From positions 1 through 44,606 of the IMG/VR virus record IMGVR_UViG_2711768040_000011: DNA of 44,606 nt; one strand, written 5' to 3'. Under the pieces are notes generated by a model, which saw only the letters and a program-made list of their open reading frames with translations, did no database searches and was not told where the DNA came from. A program made the translations under genes and the position numbers. Numbering within the stretch: the stretch's first letter is position 1; every line of letters starts with the position of its first letter. Shown here one piece after another: positions 1,273 to 44,606 of this stretch. Origin of the DNA: a virus (Duplodnaviria > Heunggongvirae > Uroviricota > Caudoviricetes).

Positions 1273-1542
1273 TATCGTTGAGTATTAGCCTTGGTCAACC
1301 CGAAATTTTCTGATTTTCGTTACTGAGAGCTTAGGTATGGTGTAAGCTATTGACGTTAGTTTGCTCTCAACAAGTTACTAACTAGGGGGTCAGGCGGGCT
1401 TCGCTCTCTTGACCCCTGACTTTCCACATTGGTAGTTGTCCACTCCCTGCATCTGTTTTTACAAAGCACATAATCATTACACAAATTAAGCTTTATGATT
1501 ATAATGCTATTGTCTCTACATCTTTTGAGCCTAACAATCAAT

Positions 1543-2655
1543 ATGAAATTATCTCAAAATCAGTCTGATGCACTTGAGTCTCTCAGGGGGTTGTCAGCTA
1601 TCGCAGTGTTAATCTGTCACTTTTTTCAGGTCTTTCTGGCTAGATTTTATCCTGATTACTTTCATGCCGATTTGATCATTGCTCAGTCTAGCGTAATGAT
1701 TTTTTTTGTTATGAGTGGCTTTCTTATTGGTGTATCAGTGCAGTCAAACATCAGTCGAAACGGAAGTTTTGACCTCATTTCGTATGCCAAATCACGATTT
1801 CTTCGTATTTACCCGCCTTTATTGTTTGCCATTATATTGTGTTTCATTTTGTCTAGCTTGGCCCCAATTTTCTTTGAAAGCGGAAGCGCCTCTTTCATGA
1901 TCCCAGATGCTTTTACACGAGGTAAATCTCTGGAAATGCCAGCAAAAGAGATTTTGGCCTCACTTACTTTCATGAATGGATTCTTGCCAGTAGGTGCAAA
2001 TTTTAACTCCCCTCTGTGGAGCCTACCGTACGAGGTGTGGTACTACGTTGTCTTTGGCCTACTTGCAACTCTACGCCCTGGGCTTGTGATTCTTGGTCTT
2101 ATTTTTTTCTTTGTCATTTCAATGGCAAATGATCGCTTCATGGCTTACTCAGTAATATGGGGAGCCGGTTTCGCAATGTCATTCTTACTTTCAAGAACTG
2201 CTTATGCTAAAGCGCTATGTGTTATCGGGCTTGCTTATTTCGGTTATCAATCTTATTTAAATGCAGGAACATTCCTGGACGGAACAACCGATCTAGAAAT
2301 GTATAAAATTACATTCGGCCTCGCATTTTCCATGCTCGTTTATATAGCACTCTTCATTTATGACCTGCCTTTCAAGGTGTTAAAGAAATCATCAAAAATT
2401 TCATACACGTTATATATCACTCATTTCCCTGTTATGCTTTTCTTCATCGGAGCTTTCGAGTACACAGTTAAAAATGATGCTTCGTTATCTGCGGTCATTG
2501 GGATCTGCGCAATGGTTGTGGCCTTAATCATTTCGCATTACGCATCACAAGTTTTTGAGAACAAAAAAGTAATGGCTGCAATGTTTATGAAAAAGGCCAT
2601 GCAAGAAAAATCAAATATCAGAAGTCCGGAGCATACGTCCCTGACACAAAAATAG
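1543..2655 (+). CDS. membrane acyltransferase (acyltransferase-3/OafA family; putative O-antigen O-acetyltransferase, lysogenic conversion)
   Basis: Multi-TM protein with ESLRGLSAIAVLICH motif typical of acyltransferase-3; AT-rich; in-frame alternative start at 1495; 3' end overlaps tailspike 3' end. Confidence 0.8.
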   Translation: MKLSQNQSDALESLRGLSAIAVLICHFFQVFLARFYPDYFHADLIIAQSSVMIFFVMSGFLIGVSVQSNISRNGSFDLISYAKSRFLRIYPPLLFAIILCFILSSLAPIFFESGSASFMIPDAFTRGKSLEMPAKEILASLTFMNGFLPVGANFNSPLWSLPYEVWYYVVFGLLATLRPGLVILGLIFFFVISMANDRFMAYSVIWGAGFAMSFLLSRTAYAKALCVIGLAYFGYQSYLNAGTFLDGTTDLEMYKITFGLAFSMLVYIALFIYDLPFKVLKKSSKISYTLYITHFPVMLFFIGAFEYTVKNDASLSAVIGICAMVVALIISHYASQVFENKKVMAAMFMKKAMQEKSNIRSPEHTSLTQK

Positions 2656-4570
2656 TCGTGCCGAGAGACTGCAGGAATGCTGGTTTTACTAGAACATTCT
2701 TGAGGCTAACTGCTACCCACGTGCTATTCGAAACGTTGGCCGCCATCACGATAGTTTGTGTCGTTGATGGCGCATTCACTCCCACCGTAGCAGACGTGTC
2801 TACAAGAGTAGAACCAGCATAATATGACACTGCAGGTAACGTAGTTGTTGCTCCATGTGTCAATGTCACAAGACCAGCTGAACCAGATGCCGACACAAGG
2901 GATGAAATCCATGCTGGGGGAGTTGCGGCAGGCCTGCCAGATCTGATTTCGCCAGTATTTACGTTTACTATAATATCCAGATTGGCATATATAGTTACAC
3001 GCAAATTATAATCTGTGCTTACGTTTAATCTGTCAGCAATAGCAAACAAGCCACTGGTTAATTCTGTTCTGTTTAAATATGCGGTAAAATCAAACCAACA
3101 CGACGCATTATCTGAAATGGTAAATAATAATGAGTTACCGTCACTTGCAGGAGCAACCTTCGATATATTCGACGGGCGCATCACTCCAGTATCGTTATTT
3201 AGATTAAGAATTTGCCACGAAGAACTAGATGAGGCATATCGTGCTGCTGCAGCACAATGCTTTGCCCTTAGCCATGGCGCAACGTTGTTTCCTGTGTACT
3301 GTAACAGATCCTCAGGGGTCTTTGTTTTCACTCCCCCCTTCTCGATAGCCCACAATCCTCTCGCCGCTCCTGCACCCATGGTGTTATAGCCTTTTTGGGT
3401 ATAGTGAACTCCTTCTGTTCCTACGTTTCCGTCACGATTAAGGAATGAAGGACACCCATCAAAAGCAGTAACAGCAATATCTCGAGCATTAACAACATAT
3501 CTCTGAGCGTTCTGGATGGTTTGCCATGTGTATTCTGGTCGGTTCTTTGGGCTGCCAACTGTACAGTTTGCGAACCTTGCCAGAGGTATATCTGCAGAAA
3601 GATTATCGATGAGATTAACAAACAAAGATCGGTAAGAATCGAACGATGTCTCGTTAAGCTGATCTGTTTCACCCTGATGGAAGAGAACATATACTTTTCC
3701 GAGCGTTAACCCCTGAGTCCCCATTCTTGATATTGCATTATTAACACCTGCAACTAATAAGCCATAATAGTCAGACGCGCCAGTAGATGCCCCCTTAGAA
3801 AGTTGAGCTAACGAGGTAGCACCACGACCACAATGAACAACAACAGCACCCCTGCCACTCAGTCGATACCATTCGTTAGTAAATTCACCCCATGCATGCC
3901 CTGAAGATGCCACTCCTGACGAGCTTACAATGGCCTGAATGATCGGTTTAATAGTACCGTCTGTGAAATCATACATCAGTGATTTCGGCAGCGGGGATGG
4001 GAATCCAGACGTATCACCAGAAAGAATGGCCTCGCCAGCGCTATTGGACTGGCCGTAGGTCACGATCAGGTCATATACATCAGGGGCTTCAAGATATTTT
4101 GTACCCCTAACGTTCTGCGCAACCTGAGATGCCGGCACTCCAGCAATACTCACCGTGCTATTAACATCGGCTAGCTGCTTACGGAGAACATCGCTAACGT
4201 CAACGAGTTGCCATTTACCCTCGCCTGTTCCGCCTGATGAGCCAGGCGTTGATCCAGAAGGAACTGTCTTGGGTAATGTCGAAAGGTCATCCCATCGGTA
4301 CCATGCGCCAGAGGTAGTGTCCTGGATGATATCTCCTGGGTTATTGACTATCGCCCCACCCTGGAAGGTTCCTACGGGATTCCAGCCAAGGGCATAGATC
4401 TGTTCGAGAACCAAAGCCTTCAGACCTTCAATCGTGTAGTGCTTATTCCCGAAGCGATCGATATACCACTCAGCAAAAGAGGTAACGAATTCATCTATTT
4501 TCCCGGCGTTAAATTTCAGGTCAATTGGGGATTCGCTCGGTACAGGCCTATTGGTAGGTGTAGTAGCCAT
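2618..4570 (-). CDS. tailspike / receptor-binding protein with SGNH (SASA/DUF303-type) esterase domain
   Basis: 650-aa ORF at distal end of tail module; central GQSNSAGEA and HQGETD blocks resemble sialate O-acetylesterase family motifs; C-terminal third is AT-rich. Confidence 0.75.
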   Translation of the reverse strand: MATTPTNRPVPSESPIDLKFNAGKIDEFVTSFAEWYIDRFGNKHYTIEGLKALVLEQIYALGWNPVGTFQGGAIVNNPGDIIQDTTSGAWYRWDDLSTLPKTVPSGSTPGSSGGTGEGKWQLVDVSDVLRKQLADVNSTVSIAGVPASQVAQNVRGTKYLEAPDVYDLIVTYGQSNSAGEAILSGDTSGFPSPLPKSLMYDFTDGTIKPIIQAIVSSSGVASSGHAWGEFTNEWYRLSGRGAVVVHCGRGATSLAQLSKGASTGASDYYGLLVAGVNNAISRMGTQGLTLGKVYVLFHQGETDQLNETSFDSYRSLFVNLIDNLSADIPLARFANCTVGSPKNRPEYTWQTIQNAQRYVVNARDIAVTAFDGCPSFLNRDGNVGTEGVHYTQKGYNTMGAGAARGLWAIEKGGVKTKTPEDLLQYTGNNVAPWLRAKHCAAAARYASSSSSWQILNLNNDTGVMRPSNISKVAPASDGNSLLFTISDNASCWFDFTAYLNRTELTSGLFAIADRLNVSTDYNLRVTIYANLDIIVNVNTGEIRSGRPAATPPAWISSLVSASGSAGLVTLTHGATTTLPAVSYYAGSTLVDTSATVGVNAPSTTQTIVMAANVSNSTWVAVSLKNVLVKPAFLQSLGTTIFVSGTYAPDF

Positions 4571-25381: not shown

Positions 25382-25457
25382 TGGTGCTGATTGACGGAGT
25401 TGAACCGCCGACATCCTGCTTACAAGGCAGGCGCTCTACCTACTGAGCTAAATCAGC
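25382..25457 (-). tRNA. tRNA-Thr (anticodon UGU), phage-encoded
   Basis: 76-nt cloverleaf GCTGATT...AATCAGC-A-CCA: 7-bp acceptor stem, U8, GG in D-loop, anticodon loop CTTGTAA, T-loop TTCAACT, encoded CCA. Confidence 0.8.
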
Positions 25458-25549: not shown

Positions 25550-26050
25550 TCATTGAAAAGCAAGCACGTTGTGAACATTTTTTGCAACTTTGTTCACATT
25601 ATCGCGGCTGATAAAGGCATTTTGCAGCGGTTGATACAGGCAGAACAGTGCCGCGTTAAGTGTTTCCTTCACCTCCCGGCGTATGGTGGATATGCTCGGG
25701 TGCTTATACTGATTCCCGCCACGCGTCTTCATCACTCGAGGTTTGCTCACAGCGTGCTGCCAGCTGGCGATGCGGATCTCACTGGAGTTGCAGACGTAAT
25801 AGGCGAAGACAACACGCCAGGCGTTCTCGTCGATATTTTTCAGGTAATGGCGCAGCACTGCGTCAATCAGCATACCGTCGTCGTCGCTACATACCGGGCG
25901 AGATGCCTGCTGCGGTTCGACGGTCGCCATAAACTTGGCAATCATGTTGATCATCGCCTTGTCTATCTTCCCGGTCTGCGACCATGCACCCCACAACTGG
26001 AGCCACTGATCAATCCACTGATGCTGCTCGTTGGTTAATTCCAGTTTCAT
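25550..26050 (-). CDS. putative late-gene antiterminator Q
   Basis: 166-aa ORF immediately upstream of tRNA/terminator/lysis genes; N-terminal QWIDQWLQLWGAWS block typical of one Q family. Confidence 0.55.
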   Translation of the reverse strand: MKLELTNEQHQWIDQWLQLWGAWSQTGKIDKAMINMIAKFMATVEPQQASRPVCSDDDGMLIDAVLRHYLKNIDENAWRVVFAYYVCNSSEIRIASWQHAVSKPRVMKTRGGNQYKHPSISTIRREVKETLNAALFCLYQPLQNAFISRDNVNKVAKNVHNVLAFQ

Positions 26051-28287: not shown

Positions 28288-28499
28288 ACGGCCTCCTTAA
28301 CGGAAACCGCAGAATGCAGAAAATCGCAGGTGCATTTCTGCATCTGTGACAATGTGAGGAGTTCAGATTGTGGTCGCATTTAAGTCCCCTTAAATGCGCA
28401 GAAGTCACCAATGGGTGTTCAGACCATCAGCAAAGAAAGTATGGACGGTTGATTCAACAAAATCAACTGAAGAGAAAGGCCTCCGGAGAGGCCAATGAG

Positions 28500-28781
28500 T
28501 TAGTCGTCCACGCGTTTAAAGCACTGCGGGCAAACATCATTTCCACCGTGTTCTTCGTATGCGCTTTTAACAGCATCAGTCATCTCTTTAAAGCTTTCGA
28601 ATAGATGACTACCGTTGCTTTTTTTATAAGCTCCGGCTGCGTATTTGTAGATGTCGGACTCTTCTATGCCCTCATCAACATAAGTGCCCTCATGATGAGG
28701 GCACTGCGTTAAAGCGCCAACCCTACCAAGCATCTCCAATGCCCAACACTCTTGTTTCATGCAAAGTTGATCGATACTCAT
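28500..28781 (-). CDS. hypothetical Cys-containing small protein (AT-rich cassette)
   Basis: 93 aa from ATG 28781 with AGGAGG SD; Cys pairs incl. CPQC; AT-rich. Confidence 0.5.
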   Translation of the reverse strand: MSIDQLCMKQECWALEMLGRVGALTQCPHHEGTYVDEGIEESDIYKYAAGAYKKSNGSHLFESFKEMTDAVKSAYEEHGGNDVCPQCFKRVDD

Positions 28782-29047
28782 AACGCCTCCTGTTGGTTTT
28801 ACATCGCCAAATGAATGTACCACCATGCAAGAGGAAATGAAGCAGTTAAATTGTAAAACATGTGTATATATCAATGAGTTAAAATAGTTTGCTATTTTTC
28901 TTACAGCCTTGCTGCGTCGAATGGGTTAGGCATGGCGACCTCTACACGAGCTGAAAATATAAGCCGCTACAGCCAAATCCTGAATTGCTGTTATTGCCAG
29001 CATCCAACCATAAATGCTGTCATTGAAATGCCACGCCAGCGCTGTAA

Positions 29048-29263
29048 TCACGGCTTCACCTCCTTAGCCGTTTTGACGATTGCAGCGAGGCACTTCTTGC
29101 ATGGAACCTGCAATGAACCCTGCTCAATGCTCAACAGTGCATGCTGAGCGTCCTGAAACAACCAGTCAGAAAATTGAGGCTTATGTCCGCACCATGTTTC
29201 TGTTTCATGCTTCGCAAGTTTTACGCCGTCACGATAGTCATATTTGATGATGTGATTACTCAC
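29048..29263 (-). CDS. small hypothetical protein (AT-rich cassette)
   Basis: 71-aa ORF, GTG start with AGGAGG SD, overlaps Lar stop. Confidence 0.45.
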   Translation of the reverse strand: MSNHIIKYDYRDGVKLAKHETETWCGHKPQFSDWLFQDAQHALLSIEQGSLQVPCKKCLAAIVKTAKEVKP

Positions 29264-29559
29264 GGCTGTACCTCCTGCTGCGGTGCTGCAATTAGTTCTA
29301 GCGTGAAGCCGTCTTGCTTAAGACTATCAATGTAAGCCGCAGTTCTCCTGCGCTCGCCAGCACATGCCAGCGTTTCTGGGTCGTAAAACCACACCTTCAT
29401 TCGGCTATTCCATGCAGAAATTGCTTCAGCCTTATTGCGCTTTAATGGCCCATGAGCACCACATTTGCAGTGGACGTAGCGCTTCTTTCCCATAATACTG
29501 AATGAGTAGCCAATACCAAGCGCTGTCGATTCGCAAAATGGGCAGAGTAGTGGAGTCAT
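29260..29559 (-). CDS. lar: Lar-family restriction alleviation protein
   Basis: CPFCES...VHCKCGAHGP...AISAWNSR motif set typical of Lar/RalR family; AGGAGG SD. Confidence 0.7.
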   Translation of the reverse strand: MTPLLCPFCESTALGIGYSFSIMGKKRYVHCKCGAHGPLKRNKAEAISAWNSRMKVWFYDPETLACAGERRRTAAYIDSLKQDGFTLELIAAPQQEVQP

Positions 29560-30260
29560 TTATCCTCCTGCTGAGGTGCTGCTGAAGATGCAAAAATATC
29601 AATCAGCGTATCTTCTCCCATGCTATTGCAATGAGCCTGAAGCCTATTGATGATTGCCTGAAGAGCAAACTTCGGAACCATATTTTCCTTACCTATCTGC
29701 GGGCAGTTTTCGGTACCGAACCAAAATTGCTCGATCTGCAGCAGCAGACCATTTTTGCCTTCAGTTGCACTGAATACGCCGAACGCTTCAATGTCGTATG
29801 CTTTCGCAATCACAGGAGAGTTGCCATCGGCACCCTGAAGCATGGCGGCGCGGCGCTCCCAGTCAGCTATTGCGGCTGAATGTTCCATCGAGTCGTCGCC
29901 AAACTCAGCATGTGCGCACTCGTCTGCCGCATTGGCGGCAGTTTTCGCAATCGTCAAGAGATCTGACAGGAGCGAATCAGATATCGGTGCTGGCGGGGCG
30001 GTGTAAAGCGGCTCACATTCCCAGCCTTGCTTTTGCCAGGATGCCAGGACATTTTTTGAATCTGTCAGAAGGCCGTGATTCTCGTAATAAAGCGATCGCC
30101 ACGCCACAGGATCCGCTTCGAGAGATGCCAGCGCGATACGAAACACCTCTGCAGTCATGCTGCGAGGCGACTGATTGTCATGCGCTGGGTCGGTAAGGAA
30201 GCCAGTAATAAACGCCTTCAATTGCTGATTGTGAATATCGCGTTTGTCGATGTTGCTCAT
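29556..30260 (-). CDS. hypothetical protein
   Basis: ORF start MSNIDKRD (ATG 30260; ORF open to 30275); coupled to neighbours. Confidence 0.5.
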   Translation of the reverse strand: MSNIDKRDIHNQQLKAFITGFLTDPAHDNQSPRSMTAEVFRIALASLEADPVAWRSLYYENHGLLTDSKNVLASWQKQGWECEPLYTAPPAPISDSLLSDLLTIAKTAANAADECAHAEFGDDSMEHSAAIADWERRAAMLQGADGNSPVIAKAYDIEAFGVFSATEGKNGLLLQIEQFWFGTENCPQIGKENMVPKFALQAIINRLQAHCNSMGEDTLIDIFASSAAPQQEDK

Positions 30261-30904
30261 TGGGCGGTCCTCCAACCTTCACATTCAATGTCACTGCAGC
30301 CATCGAAATCGTATGGATTTAGCTGCCAGCTAATCTTTCCGCAGCAAGGGCAATTCCAGCGAACCTTACCGCTGCGTGATTTTTTTCGGTTGTGCTTTTT
30401 CAGCCACTCAGGCATGACAAGCCCTGCCGCCTGAACCATGGTGCGTCGGTTAAACTCATTGATGCTGAACGTGCGGCGCTTAGCCTTGTCAGCTAAAGCA
30501 AAAGGAATCCAGACAATGCCAGGCTCTGCCGTGTTGGCGGATACAAAAACGAATGCCTTACTGAAGTCGTCAGTTGGAAGGCCTCCATGTTGCAACCAGT
30601 ACACATCGTTACCGTTCCAACTGCCTTTTTTGTAGGCCACATAGGACTCACAGCCAGGCTCAATAACACTTTCGGTAGGTATGTACTGACAATCGACATG
30701 CCAGACAGCCATGGAATCAACACTGTCAGCGCAAACCGGCTGATCAATCTCTCTACCCAATTCCCAGCTTCTTTGAGCTTCTTCACGGGTGTACACGTGG
30801 GCGCGGTCTATATTGGAGCTATATCCGTTGCCGTTGTGGCAGTGGAATGACGCGTTACTGCCAACCGTTTCGCGAGTACAAAGCATGTAAAATCTATCGC
30901 TCAT
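30257..30904 (-). CDS. hypothetical protein with C-terminal CPCCG Cys cluster
   Basis: 215-aa ORF, overlapping start/stop with neighbours. Confidence 0.5.
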   Translation of the reverse strand: MSDRFYMLCTRETVGSNASFHCHNGNGYSSNIDRAHVYTREEAQRSWELGREIDQPVCADSVDSMAVWHVDCQYIPTESVIEPGCESYVAYKKGSWNGNDVYWLQHGGLPTDDFSKAFVFVSANTAEPGIVWIPFALADKAKRRTFSINEFNRRTMVQAAGLVMPEWLKKHNRKKSRSGKVRWNCPCCGKISWQLNPYDFDGCSDIECEGWRTAQ

Positions 30905-31335
30905 GACTGCACTCCTTTGCGAAGCTCGTCGGCGAAGTTCTCAGCATCTGCGGCCATGCCAGCAGCCTCTTCAGACATCCTCATGCTTCGGCTACGCAGA
31001 GCCTGCTGTCGTTCTCGCTTATGTGCGGCAAACATCTCCACACCCTGCGCCCGCACTTCAGCCAGGAAAGCGTCGGTGGCTGGGGTTTTGACCTTATTCG
31101 CAGCGAACTCAATTTTTTCTTTCGTGTCTCTGCCGATTTCGCTTGAGCCCAACTTTCCGATGAAGCTAACGATTTGGTCAGGGAACTGCTTCAGCCCCGC
31201 ATTCTCCGCAGCCAGCGCAGCGAATGTGGTTTCAAACACGTTAAGCAGAGTCGTAACTTCTGCCGGTGACATGTGCTCACCACATTCTGCATTCACCCTG
31301 GCGTTTTTAATCAGATCTTCGTATTTGTTGCTCAT
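30901..31335 (-). CDS. hypothetical protein
   Basis: 144 aa from ATG 31335 with GGGGGAGGG SD; the longer ORF to 31692 is a composition-odd extension. Confidence 0.5.
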   Translation of the reverse strand: MSNKYEDLIKNARVNAECGEHMSPAEVTTLLNVFETTFAALAAENAGLKQFPDQIVSFIGKLGSSEIGRDTKEKIEFAANKVKTPATDAFLAEVRAQGVEMFAAHKRERQQALRSRSMRMSEEAAGMAADAENFADELRKGVQS

Positions 31336-31631
31336 ACCCCTACCCTCCCCCAAACCATCAATACTCGCTTCATCGCCGCGCTGTTGCGGCACTCCTGAAA
31401 TATTCCGTTGGTGCAGCTGCGCGCGGTACCATCTTGCTCTTCCGGCGTCGCCAGGCGGTAAGTCACCGTTCGCCAGACCTTGCTCACGCGCACAATCTTC
31501 CTGGCCCGCTCCAGATCGATAGCGTTCTTGGTGATGCAGTTGATGGTCATGACGCACTCTGTGGCCACATCCTTCGCAGTGAAGGTCCGGTGCGTTTCGA
31601 GATAACGCAGAATTGCCTGTTTGCCTTTCAT
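31332..31631 (-). CDS. hypothetical protein
   Basis: 99-aa ORF between helicase and downstream genes, coupled overlaps. Confidence 0.45.
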   Translation of the reverse strand: MKGKQAILRYLETHRTFTAKDVATECVMTINCITKNAIDLERARKIVRVSKVWRTVTYRLATPEEQDGTARSCTNGIFQECRNSAAMKRVLMVWGRVGV

Positions 31632-33067
31632 CAGAAGCCCCCTTTCTTTTTCGGCTGCTGCTCGCGCCCGCGACGTTCTGCGGCGGCGGCATGCTGGTCT
31701 GTGTCGTAAATTGCCCCGTTAATCTGATTGCAATAAACCGTTCCGGTACTGCCGTGGCGGTTGAGTCGCAGGATTAACTCGGTTTCGCCCGGCGGCACGC
31801 TGTCATCGAAAGCACCTTCCCGGTGGATACCAACCCAGTAGTCGCAGTCCTGCTCAATCTGTCCTGTGTCGCGGGAATCACTCGGCAACGGGCGTTTATT
31901 CACTCGCTTCTCCAGTTCGCGGTTGAGCTGAGTCAGCAGCACGACGACGCAGCCAAGCTCTTTGGCCAGGTTCTTCAACCCTTTGGTGATCATCCCGTAG
32001 GCCAGGTCATTACGGTCTGCTTTTTCGGCGGTCATCAGCGTCAGGTAGTCAACCAGAATCATGCCTACGCAGCCTTTCTCGCGCTTAATTCGACGGCATT
32101 CGGTAACGATATGCGCCAGTGACAGGCCAGGAGTGTCGTCGATGTACAGCATGTCGATTTCACTCAGCCGCCCGGCTGTTGCGATCGCCTTCTTAAAGTC
32201 GCCGTCGTAGTCGCCCTGATACTGGTCATCGGCATCATCCGTGGCGGGCATGTAAAAAATGCTCGGGTTAATGCCCGACTTCTGACCAACCAGTTTTTCG
32301 AGGATCTGGTCGCCTGGCATTTCCAGGCTGAACATCAGCGCCGGCTTTTTCTCACGAACCGCGCAGTTGATCGCCATCTGCCCGTACAGGGTTGTTTTGC
32401 CCATTTTTGGCCTTGCGCCAATTACGAACAGAGAGCCTTTAACCAGACCTTTCGGCGCCAGCAGCCGGTCGAGTGACGGGATACCGGTACTCATGCCGCG
32501 CTGTTCGCCTGAGGGGTCAAATCGTTTTTCCAGATCTGCTACCCAGTCATCCATAACCTCGCCGAACGACCGCAACCCACGACGATTTCCGGTTTTTGAA
32601 TGATCTGCGAGCTGGGTGAAGATACCCTGAATGGCCTCATACTTCTGCGTAGCGCTCATACCGTTGCGGGAATACAGCAGCTCAGTAGCTTCGGTCAGAC
32701 GGTTGATACCGTAGCGCTCCATTGCGGCTTCCCGGACTGATTCTGCGTATGCCACGATGTTTGCTGCGCTTGGAGTGTTCTTGGCTATCTCCGCCAGGTA
32801 AGCAAAGCCACCTACCTGCTCCGCGAGCCCTTTTCCTTCAAGCGCGTCGAACAATGTCAGACCATCGACTGGCTTGTTGTCGCGGAACATCTGGCGCATC
32901 TCGGCAAAGATCAGCTGGTGAGGTCGGCTGTAGAACGACTCAGGCTTGAGCATCGCCAGAACCTTCTGGACTCGCTCGCTGTTGTCATCATCCAGCAGCA
33001 GGCCACCGATAACGCTCTGCTCCGCTTCGAGGTTTTGTGGCACAGCCATGAATTCAGCGGTCATCAC
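31631..33067 (-). CDS. replicative DNA helicase (DnaB family)
   Basis: 478-aa ORF with Walker A GARPKMGKTT and DnaB-like helicase blocks; overlaps O-like gene stop. Confidence 0.9.
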   Translation of the reverse strand: MMTAEFMAVPQNLEAEQSVIGGLLLDDDNSERVQKVLAMLKPESFYSRPHQLIFAEMRQMFRDNKPVDGLTLFDALEGKGLAEQVGGFAYLAEIAKNTPSAANIVAYAESVREAAMERYGINRLTEATELLYSRNGMSATQKYEAIQGIFTQLADHSKTGNRRGLRSFGEVMDDWVADLEKRFDPSGEQRGMSTGIPSLDRLLAPKGLVKGSLFVIGARPKMGKTTLYGQMAINCAVREKKPALMFSLEMPGDQILEKLVGQKSGINPSIFYMPATDDADDQYQGDYDGDFKKAIATAGRLSEIDMLYIDDTPGLSLAHIVTECRRIKREKGCVGMILVDYLTLMTAEKADRNDLAYGMITKGLKNLAKELGCVVVLLTQLNRELEKRVNKRPLPSDSRDTGQIEQDCDYWVGIHREGAFDDSVPPGETELILRLNRHGSTGTVYCNQINGAIYDTDQHAAAAERRGREQQPKKKGGF

Positions 33068-38732: not shown

Positions 38733-39017
38733 ATGAACGCATACCTCACTTACGACCGCATCGAAGATCGGCGCTGGGCTGAGCAGCAGATCACCGACGA
38801 GAAAGAGAAGTGGATCGACGACCGGGCGCAGAAAATCATCGACATGATGCCTAAAGAGCCGTCCGGCCTCTTCCACTTCACGATCCCGATAGACTCCAGC
38901 CCATACGAAGGGCTTCGCAGCGATAAAGCTGGCGAGGCCTACAACGATTTCATTTCGGTAGTTGCTTACGCCCAGGCGGAATACGACTGGGAACACCGTA
39001 CCGGCTGCCCGTTTTAA
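38733..39017 (+). CDS. hypothetical protein
   Basis: 94-aa ORF between coiled-coil gene and bet. Confidence 0.5.
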   Translation: MNAYLTYDRIEDRRWAEQQITDEKEKWIDDRAQKIIDMMPKEPSGLFHFTIPIDSSPYEGLRSDKAGEAYNDFISVVAYAQAEYDWEHRTGCPF

Positions 39018-39035
39018 TTTTTGAGGGATTTAACA

Positions 39036-39782
39036 ATGAGTACTGCACTTTCCACCATGGCCGGGAAACTGGCCGCACGCCTCGGCATGGATGCCGGTAC
39101 AGACCTGATGAATACGCTGAAGAATACAGCGTTCAAAGGTGGCAACGTCACGGACGAGCAGTTTACAGCCCTGTTGATCGTCGCCAACCAGTACGGCCTG
39201 AACCCATGGACCAAAGAGATTTACGCATTCCCAGATAAAGGCGGGATTGTCCCGGTCGTCGGCGTTGATGGATGGGCTCGCATTATCAACGAGCATCCTC
39301 AGTTTGACGGCATGGAGTTCTCTTACGACAAGGAGGAAGGCGCGTGTACCTGCAAGATTTACCGCAAAGACCGTAAGCACCCGACCATCGTCACCGAGTA
39401 CATGGGAGAGTGCAAACGCAACACTCAGCCATGGCAGTCCCACCCTACCCGCATGCTTCGCCACAAGACGCTGATCCAGTGCGCGCGTCTGGCCTTTGGT
39501 TTCGCTGGCATCTTCGACCAGGACGAGGCAGAGCGAGTAATTGAAGGAACAACGGCAGAGGTTCATGCGGGCCATGAATCAGATAGCCGCCGCCCGGAAC
39601 TGATCGCAAAAGGTGAGTCCGCCGCGCGCCTTGGAACCGTTAAGTATCAGGAGTTCTGGGTGGCGCTGAGCGCCGAAGAGAAACAGGTGATCGGCGCAGT
39701 TGAGAAACGACGCATGTATGACATGAGTCTTGCTGTCGACAACGCCGAACCTGTCAATGTCGCAGAGACGGAGGCTGAATGA
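39036..39782 (+). CDS. bet: recombination protein Bet (RecT-family single-strand annealing protein)
   Basis: Long colinear identity blocks with lambda Bet as recalled (LLIVANQYGLNPWTKEIYAFPDK, MLRHK, IQCARLAFGFAGI); GAGGGA SD. Confidence 0.9.
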   Translation: MSTALSTMAGKLAARLGMDAGTDLMNTLKNTAFKGGNVTDEQFTALLIVANQYGLNPWTKEIYAFPDKGGIVPVVGVDGWARIINEHPQFDGMEFSYDKEEGACTCKIYRKDRKHPTIVTEYMGECKRNTQPWQSHPTRMLRHKTLIQCARLAFGFAGIFDQDEAERVIEGTTAEVHAGHESDSRRPELIAKGESAARLGTVKYQEFWVALSAEEKQVIGAVEKRRMYDMSLAVDNAEPVNVAETEAE

Positions 39783-40396
39783 TAGAGCAACGCACCCCTG
39801 AATGGTTTGCTGCGCGCTGCGGCAAGGTCACAGCCAGTCGCCTGGCTGATGTCATGGCCCGGACTAAGTCGGGCTACTCCACCAGCCGCCAGAACTACAT
39901 GGCCGAGCTGATTTGCCAACGGCTGACCGGGAAGCTGGAGGAAGGGTTTTCGAATGCCGCGATGATGCGCGGCACTGAACTTGAGCCAGTGGCACGCGAA
40001 ATGTACGCGCTGAATGAGTTCAATGCGGAAATCACTGAAGTTGGACTCATCGATCACCCAACCATACCCGGATTCGCAGCCAGCCCGGACGGACTTGTAA
40101 ACGACGACGGGCTTATCGAAATCAAATGCCCCAATACCTGGACCCATATCGAAACGCTGAAAACCGGTGAACCAAAGCGCCAGTACATGCTGCAAATGCA
40201 TGCACAGATGATGTGCACCGGGCGGAAATGGTGTGATTTCGTTAGTTTCGATGATCGCCTGCCGCCTGACCTCGCCTATTTCAAGAAGCGTATTCATTTC
40301 GATGAAGAGCTGGCGCGCGAAATCGAGTCTGAGGTTAAGACCTTCCTTGCAGATCTGGAATCTGAAATTCAGAAAATCACAGAGCGTGCAGCATGA
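39779..40396 (+). CDS. YqaJ-type viral recombinase exonuclease (Exo partner of Bet)
   Basis: 205-aa ORF with PD-(D/E)xK-like blocks (ASPDG...IEIKC), ATGA overlap with bet stop. Confidence 0.8.
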   Translation: MIEQRTPEWFAARCGKVTASRLADVMARTKSGYSTSRQNYMAELICQRLTGKLEEGFSNAAMMRGTELEPVAREMYALNEFNAEITEVGLIDHPTIPGFAASPDGLVNDDGLIEIKCPNTWTHIETLKTGEPKRQYMLQMHAQMMCTGRKWCDFVSFDDRLPPDLAYFKKRIHFDEELAREIESEVKTFLADLESEIQKITERAA

Positions 40397-41922: not shown

Positions 41923-42012
41923 ACAGCATCAGCGCATCGCCGTGTGGCGGGTGACATCCCGCCAAATAACGACGATCAACTGAACATCAACACATTATAT
42001 GTACATACGACC

Positions 42013-43104
42013 ATGAACATTCAGATCAAAACACTATCTGTCCGAATTAAAGACAAGCACGCAGCCGTTTTGCGGCAGATGGCCTTTGAGGTCAATCAGA
42101 TCTTTAATCTGGCAAACGAGATAACCAGCGCAGCATACGGCAACGCTGGCTTTTTTGGCGCGCAAAAACCGCAATGGCTATCGGCGTTTGATGTTCAGAA
42201 ACCGCTCCTTAAAGAGCGAAAAGAGCGCGGGTATACCATCCCCAGCCATACCGTACAGGAAATCGCAGCAATTCACGGCAAGGCACGGAAGCAATTTAAA
42301 CGCTCTCGCTTACGCTGGCGAGTCAGTGGGGGATCTCGCCGTTCGTTGGGTTGGGTGCCGTTTAAAATAGGCAGCGCTGTCTGGAAAAATGGCGCGGTGC
42401 GGTTCGCTGGCAGGATTTTTAATGTCTGGGATAGCTACGGCTTGGGAGGATTTAAATTCCGTGCTGGAAGCTTTTCAGAAGACAGCCGTGGACGCTGGTA
42501 CTTCAATGTTTGCGTAGAGGTCGAAACTGTCCCATCAACGGCCACTTCCGCCGTGGGTATCGATTTAGGGCTGAAAGACTACGCCACCCCGTCAGAAGGT
42601 GATCCGCTGATTGCCGGTAGATTCTATCGAGATCTGGAGCCTGCATTAGGAAAGGCACAGCGTGCAAACAAAAAAGCCCGTGTACGCGCCATACACGCCA
42701 AAATTAAGAACCGCCGCAAAGATGCCCTGCACAAGTACAGCACGGCGCTGGTTAACAGCCATGCGGCAATATTCGTAGGCGACGCGAGCAGTAAGAAACT
42801 GGTTAAAACCAAAATGGCAAAAAGCATTTTGGACGCTGGCTGGTTCATGCTCAAAACACAACTGGAATATAAAGCGATTGCGCGGTCAGTGGTGTTTGAA
42901 GTGGTCAACGAAAGTTATTCCACCCAAGCTTGTTCGTGTTGCGGGGCTATCTCCGCCAACAGTCCGAAAGGTAGAGCAGGCCTGCGAATAAGAGAATGGA
43001 CTTGTTGTGAGTGCGGAACCACTCATGACCGCGACGTGAACGCCGCAAAGAACATTCTCGCGGCGGGGCATCGCCGTCTAGCTGTAGGAATCCCCTTCCT
43101 TTAG
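42013..43104 (+). CDS. tnpB: TnpB (RNA-guided endonuclease / IS605 OrfB family transposase accessory protein)
   Basis: RuvC-like blocks (SAVGIDLGLKDYAT; DRDVNAAKNIL) and C-terminal zinc finger CSCCG...CCECG; ATG 42013. Confidence 0.85.
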   Translation: MNIQIKTLSVRIKDKHAAVLRQMAFEVNQIFNLANEITSAAYGNAGFFGAQKPQWLSAFDVQKPLLKERKERGYTIPSHTVQEIAAIHGKARKQFKRSRLRWRVSGGSRRSLGWVPFKIGSAVWKNGAVRFAGRIFNVWDSYGLGGFKFRAGSFSEDSRGRWYFNVCVEVETVPSTATSAVGIDLGLKDYATPSEGDPLIAGRFYRDLEPALGKAQRANKKARVRAIHAKIKNRRKDALHKYSTALVNSHAAIFVGDASSKKLVKTKMAKSILDAGWFMLKTQLEYKAIARSVVFEVVNESYSTQACSCCGAISANSPKGRAGLRIREWTCCECGTTHDRDVNAAKNILAAGHRRLAVGIPFL

Positions 43105-43228: not shown

Positions 43229-43444
43229 ATGAATGACAGCATCCTGGTTACAAGCGAAATCCTTGCGCGCTACAAAATATCGCGCAGCACGCTCTATTTC
43301 TGGAGCACTCCCGCACGTATGCCATCCAGCTTTTCATGCCCATTCCCGAAACCAACCATCCCCGGAAATCCGAAGCGCTGGCGTGAGTCAGAAATCAAGT
43401 CATGGGAAGACAAGGTCAACTTTGCTAAAGGGGATACCCAATAA
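43229..43444 (+). CDS. alpA: AlpA-family phage regulatory protein / excisionase
   Basis: 71-aa ORF MNDSILVTSEILARYKISRSTLYFW (AlpA-type HTH), GGAGA SD, adjacent to integrase. Confidence 0.7.
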   Translation: MNDSILVTSEILARYKISRSTLYFWSTPARMPSSFSCPFPKPTIPGNPKRWRESEIKSWEDKVNFAKGDTQ

Positions 43445-44606
43445 TCTCCTGCAAATGCTTCTGCCAGATATCCAGCCATTCATGCTGATCGTCCATATAG
43501 TCATGAAGGTTGTATCTGGCCATAACCCCGCCCATCTGATGTCCGAGCAACTTTTCTATAACGTGTGGTGGAGCGCCAAGCTCGGACAGGCGCGTGGCCA
43601 CCGTTCTCCGCAAATCATGTAATGACCACTCCTTCATTCCGTTCTTACGCACTACCTGCATTGAGTACGTCGAGACAAGCGTCTGCCCAGGTGGGACATC
43701 TTCTTTATCCCGGAACTGTGCTGGAGTCAGAACGTGCTTAGTGATTGATCCGCGTTGATGCTCTTGCAGAAGCCTGACCGCAGTATCCGGCAACGCACGA
43801 CGAATAGTTTTACCGGTCTTATAATCCTCTGCCGGCACAGTCCAGGACCTTTCTTTGAAATCGAACCACTCCCATCTCGACTTTCTTATTTCTGCGGCGC
43901 GGCATCCGGTTAGAATCATGAACCTGATTACCAGTTGTTGAGAGGGAGGCAGAGAGAAAAGAGTATCCCACACCTGCTTTATCTCACTATCTGAAAGCCG
44001 CCTCTCCTTCATCTTCGCTGCTATACCGACATCCGATTTTCGTAACGACTCCAGTGGATTGGTTTTGATTACTCCCCTGTTGTGGCAGAACCGGAAAGCA
44101 CGCTTGGTCAGAGACAGCATCTCACCTGATATGACACTCCTCCCCATTGCATCGAAAACCTCAAGCCAGTTCGCCTTCACTGTCTGGTCCACAATAGCCT
44201 TCCCTAGCCGCGGGCTAATGTGCTTTTTGAAGCTTTTACCGTTCGCATCAATTTTAATGAGCCCCTCCGGGATACAGTAATGCTTCACCCAGTACTCATA
44301 GGCCTCATCGACTGTCAGCGCTTCTATTCTTTCAGCCTTCTCCACCAGCACTTTCTGCCGGGGATCATACCCCTCGCTCAACCACGCTCTGAACTGCTGT
44401 CTTCTGTCTCTCGCCTGAGAGAGTGAAATAGTTGGATAGTCACCAATGCTTAACTGCACAGGCTTGCCCAGCCAGCGATACCGATAGAAGAATGTGATAG
44501 AACCGGTTATGCTTAGACGCACATTCAGTCCGTTTGAATCAGAGAGAACCTCAACCTTCTCCCTGCGCTTTCCGAGCGACTTTCGTAACTTAGTATCTGT
44601 GAGCAC
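43425..44606 (-). CDS. int: tyrosine integrase (P4-like), N-terminus runs off window end
   Basis: HxxR block (HDLRRTVAT), LLGH and catalytic Tyr region (ARYNLHDY); first codon at the window edge. Confidence 0.9.
   Translation of the reverse strand: MLTDTKLRKSLGKRREKVEVLSDSNGLNVRLSITGSITFFYRYRWLGKPVQLSIGDYPTISLSQARDRRQQFRAWLSEGYDPRQKVLVEKAERIEALTVDEAYEYWVKHYCIPEGLIKIDANGKSFKKHISPRLGKAIVDQTVKANWLEVFDAMGRSVISGEMLSLTKRAFRFCHNRGVIKTNPLESLRKSDVGIAAKMKERRLSDSEIKQVWDTLFSLPPSQQLVIRFMILTGCRAAEIRKSRWEWFDFKERSWTVPAEDYKTGKTIRRALPDTAVRLLQEHQRGSITKHVLTPAQFRDKEDVPPGQTLVSTYSMQVVRKNGMKEWSLHDLRRTVATRLSELGAPPHVIEKLLGHQMGGVMARYNLHDYMDDQHEWLDIWQKHLQEIIGYPL

Follow-up and report, generated by a model that had tools for sequence, protein, structure and literature searches.

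Lar of the Rac prophage acts in restriction alleviation, and the ren gene of phage lambda reportedly lets the phage escape Rex exclusion, an effect said to have been described by Toothman and Herskowitz in 1980. We report here on four genes (open reading frames ORF1 to ORF4) that lie between a DnaB-like helicase gene and a gene of the Lar family on the minus strand of a lambdoid prophage of Enterobacteriaceae (Caudoviricetes; IMG/VR record IMGVR_UViG_2711768040_000011, positions 1 to 44,606; this whole stretch of 44,606 nucleotides (nt) is called the window below). In lambda the operon runs in the order pR-cro-cII-O-P-ren-tR2 (PMC3640518), and Ren interacts with Rex proteins (bioRxiv 10.1101/2021.04.19.439022). 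A more recent point of comparison is Oad2 (HK446 gp27), a relative of P22 EaE that binds P2 OLD and prevents tRNase activation (bioRxiv 10.64898/2026.07.10.737580). According to the same preprint, OLD cleaves host tRNA-Thr(UGU) after nt 27-29 and the HK446 copy of this tRNA rescues phages; some Oad2 proteins occur as fusions with HNH or EaD/Ea22 proteins, and the activity of Oad2 is highly specific, an HK75 homologue 54% identical to Oad2 being unable to inhibit P2 OLD. Set against these systems, our data lead us to read the region as the distal (delayed-early) part of the pR operon, made up of independent, exchangeable accessory genes that probably serve counter-defence and do not form one system, a reading to which we assign a probability of roughly 0.6.

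All four ORFs, which together span 29556-31631, have significant protein-level homologues and are therefore genes and not chance ORFs; they are real and co-oriented, and almost certainly read from pR. A preliminary description, made from the DNA sequence alone, had listed four ORFs of 99, 144, 215 and 234 amino acids (aa) at these positions and had called them translationally coupled directly downstream of the DnaB-like gene, and we confirm both statements. Public gene calls for a prophage that is 100% identical to the window across 10.8 kb (GCA_045609385.1) give the same series of products (477/99/144/215/234/99/71 aa). The stop codon of the DnaB-like gene and the start of ORF1 share 1 nt (TGATG), 4-nt ATGA overlaps join ORF1 to ORF2, ORF2 to ORF3, ORF3 to ORF4 and ORF4 to the Lar gene, a GTGA overlap joins the Lar gene to a 71-aa gene, and a purine-rich Shine-Dalgarno sequence precedes every start by 6-10 nt. 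The 144-aa product of ORF2 begins at the ATG at 31335 (the mechanical ORF list extends this frame to 263 aa), and ORF4 measures 234 aa from its ATG or 239 aa from an upstream TTG. Each exact protein sequence occurs on 359-525 public contigs of E. coli, Salmonella enterica and other Enterobacteriaceae. Within the four genes a consensus scan found no sigma-70-like promoter site and Rfam no RNA element. Scans of ORF1 to ORF4 against Pfam, NCBIfam and PADLOC gave no matches except a marginal PADLOC match for ren (E 0.011), the defence models of PADLOC-DB matched none of ORF2 to ORF4, the Lar gene or the 71-aa gene, and PDB sequence searches with the four proteins returned nothing meaningful. The preliminary description had called all four genes uncharacterised and, apart from a CPCCG cluster in the 215-aa protein, had found no motif to assign. 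This second statement has to be withdrawn, and the first now applies to ORF3 and to the C-terminal module of ORF4 and no longer to ORF1 (ren), ORF2 (EaE/Oad2 family) or the N-terminal two thirds of ORF4 (ea-type; PHROGs 60, 660 and 5117).

Evidence for exchangeable modules came from six public loci that encode an identical ORF4. In these, four different replication modules, of the DnaB type, the IstB/DnaC type, the lambda O/P type and the DnaT/P type, precede the block ORF2-ORF3-ORF4-Lar, whose DNA is 97-100% identical among the loci. The nin or late modules on the other side of the block also differ among the six loci, and in one phage the block stands directly before NinX and terminase. On the left the block breaks off within the final ~80-100 nt of the first gene, so that ren is replaced by genes of 114 aa or 191 aa when the replication module changes; ren is thus exchanged together with the replication module and not with the ORF2-Lar cassette. 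In one phage the shared segment is limited to window positions 31219-29303, and the mosaic structure extends to ORF2 and ORF4, whose own breakpoints differ. By these comparisons the four genes resolve into at least three independently moving modules and not one unit. The proposal in the preliminary description that this is a variable accessory region of lambdoid phages is borne out by the same data. Indeed the region is an ordinary mosaic accessory string of such phages, whose sole unusual point is that exo-xis-type genes (EaE-like, ea-type mosaic and Ea8.5) stand on the pR side between replication and nin.

ORF1, judged by similarity, is plainly ren, a gene already known for decades. Of its 99 aa, 95 align with lambda Ren at 52% identity (E 2e-31), it matches PHROG 142 'Ren-like exclusion protein' at 4.2e-32, and a sequence identical to it is named 'protein ren' by NCBI. 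It resembles lambda ren in size, in operon, in its site directly after the replication genes and in its overlapping start, and differs in being preceded by a DnaB-type helicase gene where lambda has P.

ORF2 is a new and divergent member of the recently characterised EaE/Oad2 family. A direct comparison with Oad2 gave 31% identity over 122 aa (E 2e-10), a reverse search with Oad2 found ORF2 as its sole match in the window (E 2e-7), and both proteins match the same six PHROGs (492, 614, 368, 14548, 10746 and 26126). The alignment covers Oad2 residues 57-172 and includes the TPATDAFLAEVRAQ motif and the C-terminal ...LRKG end, whereas the N-terminus of ORF2 is different and shorter. By tblastn, residues 31-103 are 47% identical to a P22-type 'EaE protein', and HK97 gp37 and HK620 hkaH are found as well. 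With >4,300 clusters the family is very large, and it is mosaic. Stretches of DNA >=90% identical to the central segment of ORF2 were found downstream of ren in E. coli prophages, inside genes that bear the annotations 'HNH endonuclease', 'EaE protein' or 'coiled-coil protein', which is consistent with the Oad2 fusions reported in the preprint. P7 Upf87.4, P7 Upf88.3 and lambda Ea22 were considered as relatives of ORF2 and rejected, as no similarity was found. Two features of the phage provide circumstantial evidence for a link to OLD. The Gam-like gene at 38733-39017 is of a known OLD trigger type, and a tRNA-Thr(UGU) gene at 25382-25457 (-) lies between the Q antiterminator gene (25550-26050) and the lysis genes. 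HK446 likewise has tRNA-Thr(UGU) after Q, and the place in the window matches that of its tRNA-Asn/tRNA-Thr(UGU) pair (4098-4253 of HK446 locus L065). The anticodon stem of the phage tRNA reads CCTGC/GCAGG, compared with ACTGA/TCAGT in E. coli thrU. Encoded in a phage with both a Gam-like RecBCD inhibitor and tRNA-Thr(UGU), ORF2 is a ready test case for the specificity of the new anti-OLD inhibitors.

ORF3 is the real unassignable gene of the four, a full-length member of PHROG 2457 (4.6e-107) from a family for which no Pfam model exists. A word-indexed search returned 167 relatives, and a hidden Markov model search of 1.84 billion representatives returned 754 clusters (50% identity; E<=1e-3), nearly all of ~200-220 aa and of a single architecture; the few longer relatives, checked for fusions, carried no Pfam domains. 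Homologues are found in genomes of Enterobacterales, Alteromonas, Rheinheimera, Acinetobacter, Shewanella, Pseudomonas, Methyloprofundus and Undibacterium, in phages of Vibrio (129 records), Pseudomonas and Burkholderia, in P1/P7-like phage-plasmids and in the P22-like IME10. The Vibrio phage members of PHROG 2457 (for example the 'putative zinc finger protein' of H20-like phages) are 35-42% identical to ORF3 over the full length, and Upf87.6 of P7, itself of an uncharacterised family, is 79% identical. In P7 (NC_050152.1, 86674-89014) the gene for Upf87.6 lies in an operon behind the C1 repressor operator Op(hea). Across 87 divergent members, which are 21-47% identical to ORF3, the residues G15, G27-Y28, A43, P56, D71, Q73, G98-N99(-D100), A117 and R143 are kept together with four cysteines (C185 in 97%, C188 in 98%, C203 in 97% and C208 in 82%). 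The CPCCG cluster seen in the preliminary description is real, and the pattern of conservation identifies it as part of a predicted metal-binding Cys4 zinc ribbon with two CxxC-like knuckles. This ribbon is not a Lar domain, as ORF3 matched neither PF14354 nor TIGR03655.

Structure prediction, which the preliminary description had suggested for each protein, was informative in part: the AlphaFold2 model of ORF3 is confident but found no fold match, and that of the ORF4 C-terminal module is unreliable. The ORF3 model, built from a 53-sequence alignment, has a predicted local distance difference test score (pLDDT) of 93.6 and a predicted template modelling score of 0.76. It contains two small lobes (beta-hairpin/alpha/beta/alpha/beta), two helices with the basic stretch KKHNRKKSRSGK in them, and a pair of zinc-ribbon hairpins. 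The predicted fold has no match in the PDB or among predicted viral proteins. Profile searches of PDB and Pfam gave weak matches to the basic-linker and zinc-ribbon part only (ribosomal eL43 and uS14, zinc-finger proteins and Zn-ribbon families), and a Pfam scan of 83 divergent family members gave nothing beyond weak Zn-ribbon matches. When the two lobes were aligned to each other with hhalign a weak 26-column match was obtained at a probability of 24%, from which we claim no repeat. Literature searches found no characterised homologue of ORF3 and no anti-defence hotspot on the nin side. The family is compact, well conserved and widespread in the early operons of temperate phages, which makes it a reasonable choice when screening for anti-defence or host-takeover functions or when selecting proteins for structure determination; of the whole region, ORF3 and the Oad2-like ORF2 are what deserves experiments.

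ORF4 is best described, from its alignments, as a new combination of known shuffled modules with an orphan domain. Residues 9-168 match PHROGs 60, 5117 and 660, and phage proteins with an Ea22 or EaA annotation align to residues 11-93 or 40-93 at ~47-52% identity. Some of its 985 relatives carry Pfam Ead_Ea22 (PF13935), DUF551 (PF04448) or DUF550 (PF04447), and these align to ORF4 residues 1-~150. Mapping of 120 homologues showed that an N-terminal module (1-~145) and a C-terminal module (~147-234) recombine independently, joined by the conserved linkers ALASLEAEPV, APPAPV and RAAMLQGADGNSP. ORF4 thus has N-terminal modules, linkers and a shuffled build in common with prophage proteins that bear Ead_Ea22, DUF551 or DUF550 domains. 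The C-terminal module of ~90 aa has no PHROG, Pfam or PDB sequence relative, its AlphaFold2 model is of low confidence (pLDDT 54), and it is an orphan mobile domain. The module (AYDIEAFGVFSATEG...CPQIGKENMVPKFALQAIINRLQ.HC; 29559-29852 (-), as residues 137-234) is well conserved and was observed on many different N-termini. Membership of ORF4 in the Ea22 family was rejected, since no Pfam family matched at E<=0.1 and lambda Ea22 gave a BLASTP E value of 1.3; P7 Upf88.3 and IME10 hkaG were also rejected as relatives, with no significant similarity.

Why should this string serve counter-defence? Its most likely targets are exclusion systems of the host or of prophages, because ren and Lar have such a role and because the sole characterised relative of ORF2 inhibits an ABC-ATPase/TOPRIM nuclease. 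What the data themselves establish is the structure and operon placement of the genes, their homologies, their modular inheritance and the failure of the ORF3 fold to match any other; the counter-defence role of ORF2 to ORF4, like every biochemical function proposed here, is inferred. In the order of transcription, ren comes first and belongs to the replication module. ORF2 may bind and lock an abortive-infection nuclease of the OLD type (ABC-ATPase/TOPRIM) or a similar host sensor, by analogy with Oad2. ORF3 could be a stoichiometric binder whose basic linker and Cys4 zinc ribbon contact nucleic acid or a conserved host factor, and its kept polar residues (Y28, D71, Q73, N99, D100 and R143) may cluster between the N-terminal lobes and provide specific recognition or catalysis. 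ORF4 is a shuffled ea-type protein with a variable C-terminal 'cargo' domain, and Lar (restriction alleviation), the 71-aa protein and Ea8.5 follow.

Several observations weigh against this reading. Anti-OLD activity cannot simply be transferred to ORF2, because its identity to Oad2 is only 31% and the 54% identical HK75 homologue is already inactive. The genomic setting is also different: Oad2 lies in the pL recombination locus, between xis and erf/abc2 and near int/xis, whereas the place of ORF2 is downstream of ren on the pR side. The literature ties Ea22 and Ea8.5 of lambda to the lysis-lysogeny decision and not to counter-defence (PMC7093339), and ORF4 and the ea8.5-like gene may be developmental modulators. 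For ORF3, no homology, fold match, domain fusion or conserved neighbour indicates any activity. Its architecture is in addition unusually stable, with ~80% identity between lambdoid and P1/P7-like phages, and this conservation is easier to reconcile with a conserved target than with an arms race against variable defence proteins. One may nevertheless speculate on a more ambitious version in which ORF3 represents a so far unrecognised class of phage early proteins, its new fold combining the basic linker and Cys4 zinc ribbon with two lobes that may hold the conserved Y-D-Q-N-D-R polar cluster, and neutralises a conserved host nucleic-acid-linked function or an immune sensor, and in which ORF3, the Oad2-like ORF2, the ORF4 C-domain, Lar and tRNA-Thr(UGU) make up a multi-layer counter-defence island with at least two new inhibitors; we offer this tentatively and with considerable doubt.

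The same homologies can be read in developmental terms. Both ORF2 and ORF4 are members of 'ea' families from the exo-xis/early-left region, and the string also includes an Ea8.5 homologue, so ORF2 to ORF4 could be modulators of lysis-lysogeny or of the host cell cycle, like the exo-xis genes of lambda (the pro-lysogenic ea22, and ea8.5, orf60a, orf61 and orf63), relocated to the pR side. Ea22 is known to promote lysogeny despite its high sequence diversity (PMC7093339, PMC10834534), and the phage's own exo-xis region is short. We nevertheless consider this explanation unlikely: ORF4 is not detectably similar to lambda Ea22 and misses the Pfam family Ead_Ea22, the only ORF2 relative with a known biochemistry is a defence inhibitor, and Lar and ren, both functions against host exclusion, lie in the same string.

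A second alternative concerns ORF3, which could be an enzyme, for example one that modifies nucleic acids or nucleotides, and not a passive binder. The six polar residues named above are kept at 84-99% in members that share so little identity overall, the annotators of P7 took Upf87.6 for a 'putative tyrosine protein phosphatase', and in Vibrio phage D80 a DNA methyltransferase gene adjoins the homologue. On the other hand, ORF3 matched no catalytic fold or family, has no conserved His/Cys catalytic motif outside the zinc ribbon, and none of our matches supports the P7 annotation. An enzymatic ORF3 seems to us distinctly improbable.

The co-inheritance of the ORF2-Lar block in six phage backgrounds and its translational coupling would also be expected if ORF2 to ORF4, with or without Lar, formed one multi-protein system such as an anti-restriction complex, a prophage defence system or a toxin-antitoxin, and a gene annotated Ead or Ea22 likewise follows the ORF3 homologue in P7 and in E. 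coli phages. Outside the enterobacterial block, however, the partners are not kept. None of 45 genomic loci showed a conserved partner of ORF3: an ORF2-like neighbour was present in 2, and an ORF4-like or Lar neighbour in 0. The sole recurrent neighbour was an integrase gene, at 6 loci. The homologues were always among early or accessory phage genes: in D80 a Mu Gam-like gene lies on one side and the methyltransferase gene on the other, in E. coli phages the surroundings are Ea22/EaA genes, and in Acinetobacter and Methyloprofundus they are prophage early regions. The 'Ea22-like' genes downstream in P7 and IME10 are moreover dissimilar to ORF4, and the breakpoints of the mosaics ORF2 and ORF4 together with the lack of significant PADLOC matches for ORF2-4 or Lar make a single system very unlikely. 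We give scarcely any weight to the idea that the four genes are replication accessory proteins of the DnaB-like helicase (a loader, a primase adaptor or origin factors): they lie directly 3' of the helicase gene and are coupled to it, ren co-varies with the replication module, has been termed 'likely involved in DNA replication' in one paper and interacts with Rex proteins together with O, but ORF2 to ORF4 stay unchanged behind unrelated replication modules, match no replication family, housekeeping ones included, in Pfam or NCBIfam (in line with the accessory role given to them in the preliminary description), and ORF3 homologues adjoin integrase or recombination genes in other phages. A TnpB gene was also seen near the ORF3 homologue of the Methyloprofundus prophage.

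The genes downstream of ORF4 belong to the same string (Table 1). The gene directly 3' of it encodes a bona fide Lar member that moves with ORF2 to ORF4, and the 71-aa gene after it recurs at most of the related loci. The hairpin at 28493-28478 is the first good terminator-like site on the strand and comes directly after the ea8.5-like gene. In lambda ninB comes after tR2, whereas here six extra genes stand before the terminator-like site; the order beyond the Ea8.5 homologue is NinB, NinE, phosphatase, NinG and Q. The Ea8.5 homologue thus lies on the pR side before ninB, and in lambda ea8.5 is a gene of the exo-xis region. A repeat, GCAGCACC(T/G)CAGCAGGAGG, has 2 matches in the window against 0.01 expected and encodes the ...AAPQQE tails of the proteins together with the Shine-Dalgarno sequence and the overlapping start of the next gene. 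Near-identical sequences of ~19-20 nt were also observed at 29257-29276 and 29045-29064, and three successive junctions (ORF4/Lar, Lar/71-aa gene and 71-aa gene/next ORF) carry such sequences. We regard the repeats as candidate module-boundary sequences for cassette exchange.

Table 1. Features of the ORF1-ORF4 locus and its surroundings (window coordinates).
Feature	Position	Strand	Basis or remark
DnaB-like replicative helicase	31631..33067	-	ORF list; Pfam DnaB/DnaB_C on identical public gene; upstream neighbour
ORF1, 99 aa, ren orthologue	31332..31631	-	lambda Ren similarity, PHROG 142
ORF2, 144 aa, EaE / Oad2-family protein	30901..31335	-	Oad2 similarity, shared PHROGs
ORF3, 215 aa, PHROG 2457 family	30257..30904	-	two small alpha/beta lobes, basic linker, predicted C-terminal Cys4 zinc ribbon
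ORF4, 234 aa, mosaic ea-type modular protein	29556..30260	-	PHROGs 60, 5117, 660
Junction repeat GCAGCACC(T/G)CAGCAGGAGG	29564..29582 (ORF4/Lar), 29271-29289 (Lar/71-aa gene)	-	18/19 nt identical
Lar-family restriction-alleviation gene, 99 aa	29260..29559	-	Pfam PF14354 8e-7; TIGR03655 2.5e-12; PHROG 599
71-aa gene, PHROG 4090	29048..29263	-	found in 5/6 related loci
Ea8.5 homologue, 93 aa from internal ATG	28500..28781	-	51% identity to lambda Ea8.5, E 2e-33; Pfam PF20735; public gene call
Terminator-like GC hairpin + T-rich tail	28478..28493	-	consensus scan only; tR2-like position before ninB

Elsewhere in the window, the leftward operon (+) contains, next to the Gam-like nuclease inhibitor gene, genes for Bet (39021-39782) and a RecE-like exonuclease (39779-40396). 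The RecE-like gene is followed by a short exo-xis region that encodes a DksA-like zinc-finger protein and members of PHROG 874 and PHROG 285, and it looks as if the usual ea genes had been transferred to the pR side. An IS605 OrfB/TnpB-like gene (41944-43104 (+); Pfam OrfB_IS605 and Cas12f1-like TNB) lies inside the prophage where the leftward early operon ends. An integrase gene (43425-44606 (-); Arm-DNA-bind_3 and Phage_integrase), which may belong to this prophage or to an adjacent element, is on the strand opposite to the leftward operon and runs past the right end of the window. At the other end, positions 1-672 hold a host-side gene for an SRAP (YedK-like) peptidase. A stretch of low GC content (43%) carries a gene for an Acyl_transf_3 acyltransferase (1495-2655 (+)), a possible O-antigen-modifying moron, which converges on a tailspike gene (2618-4570 (-)) with a SASA carbohydrate-esterase domain.

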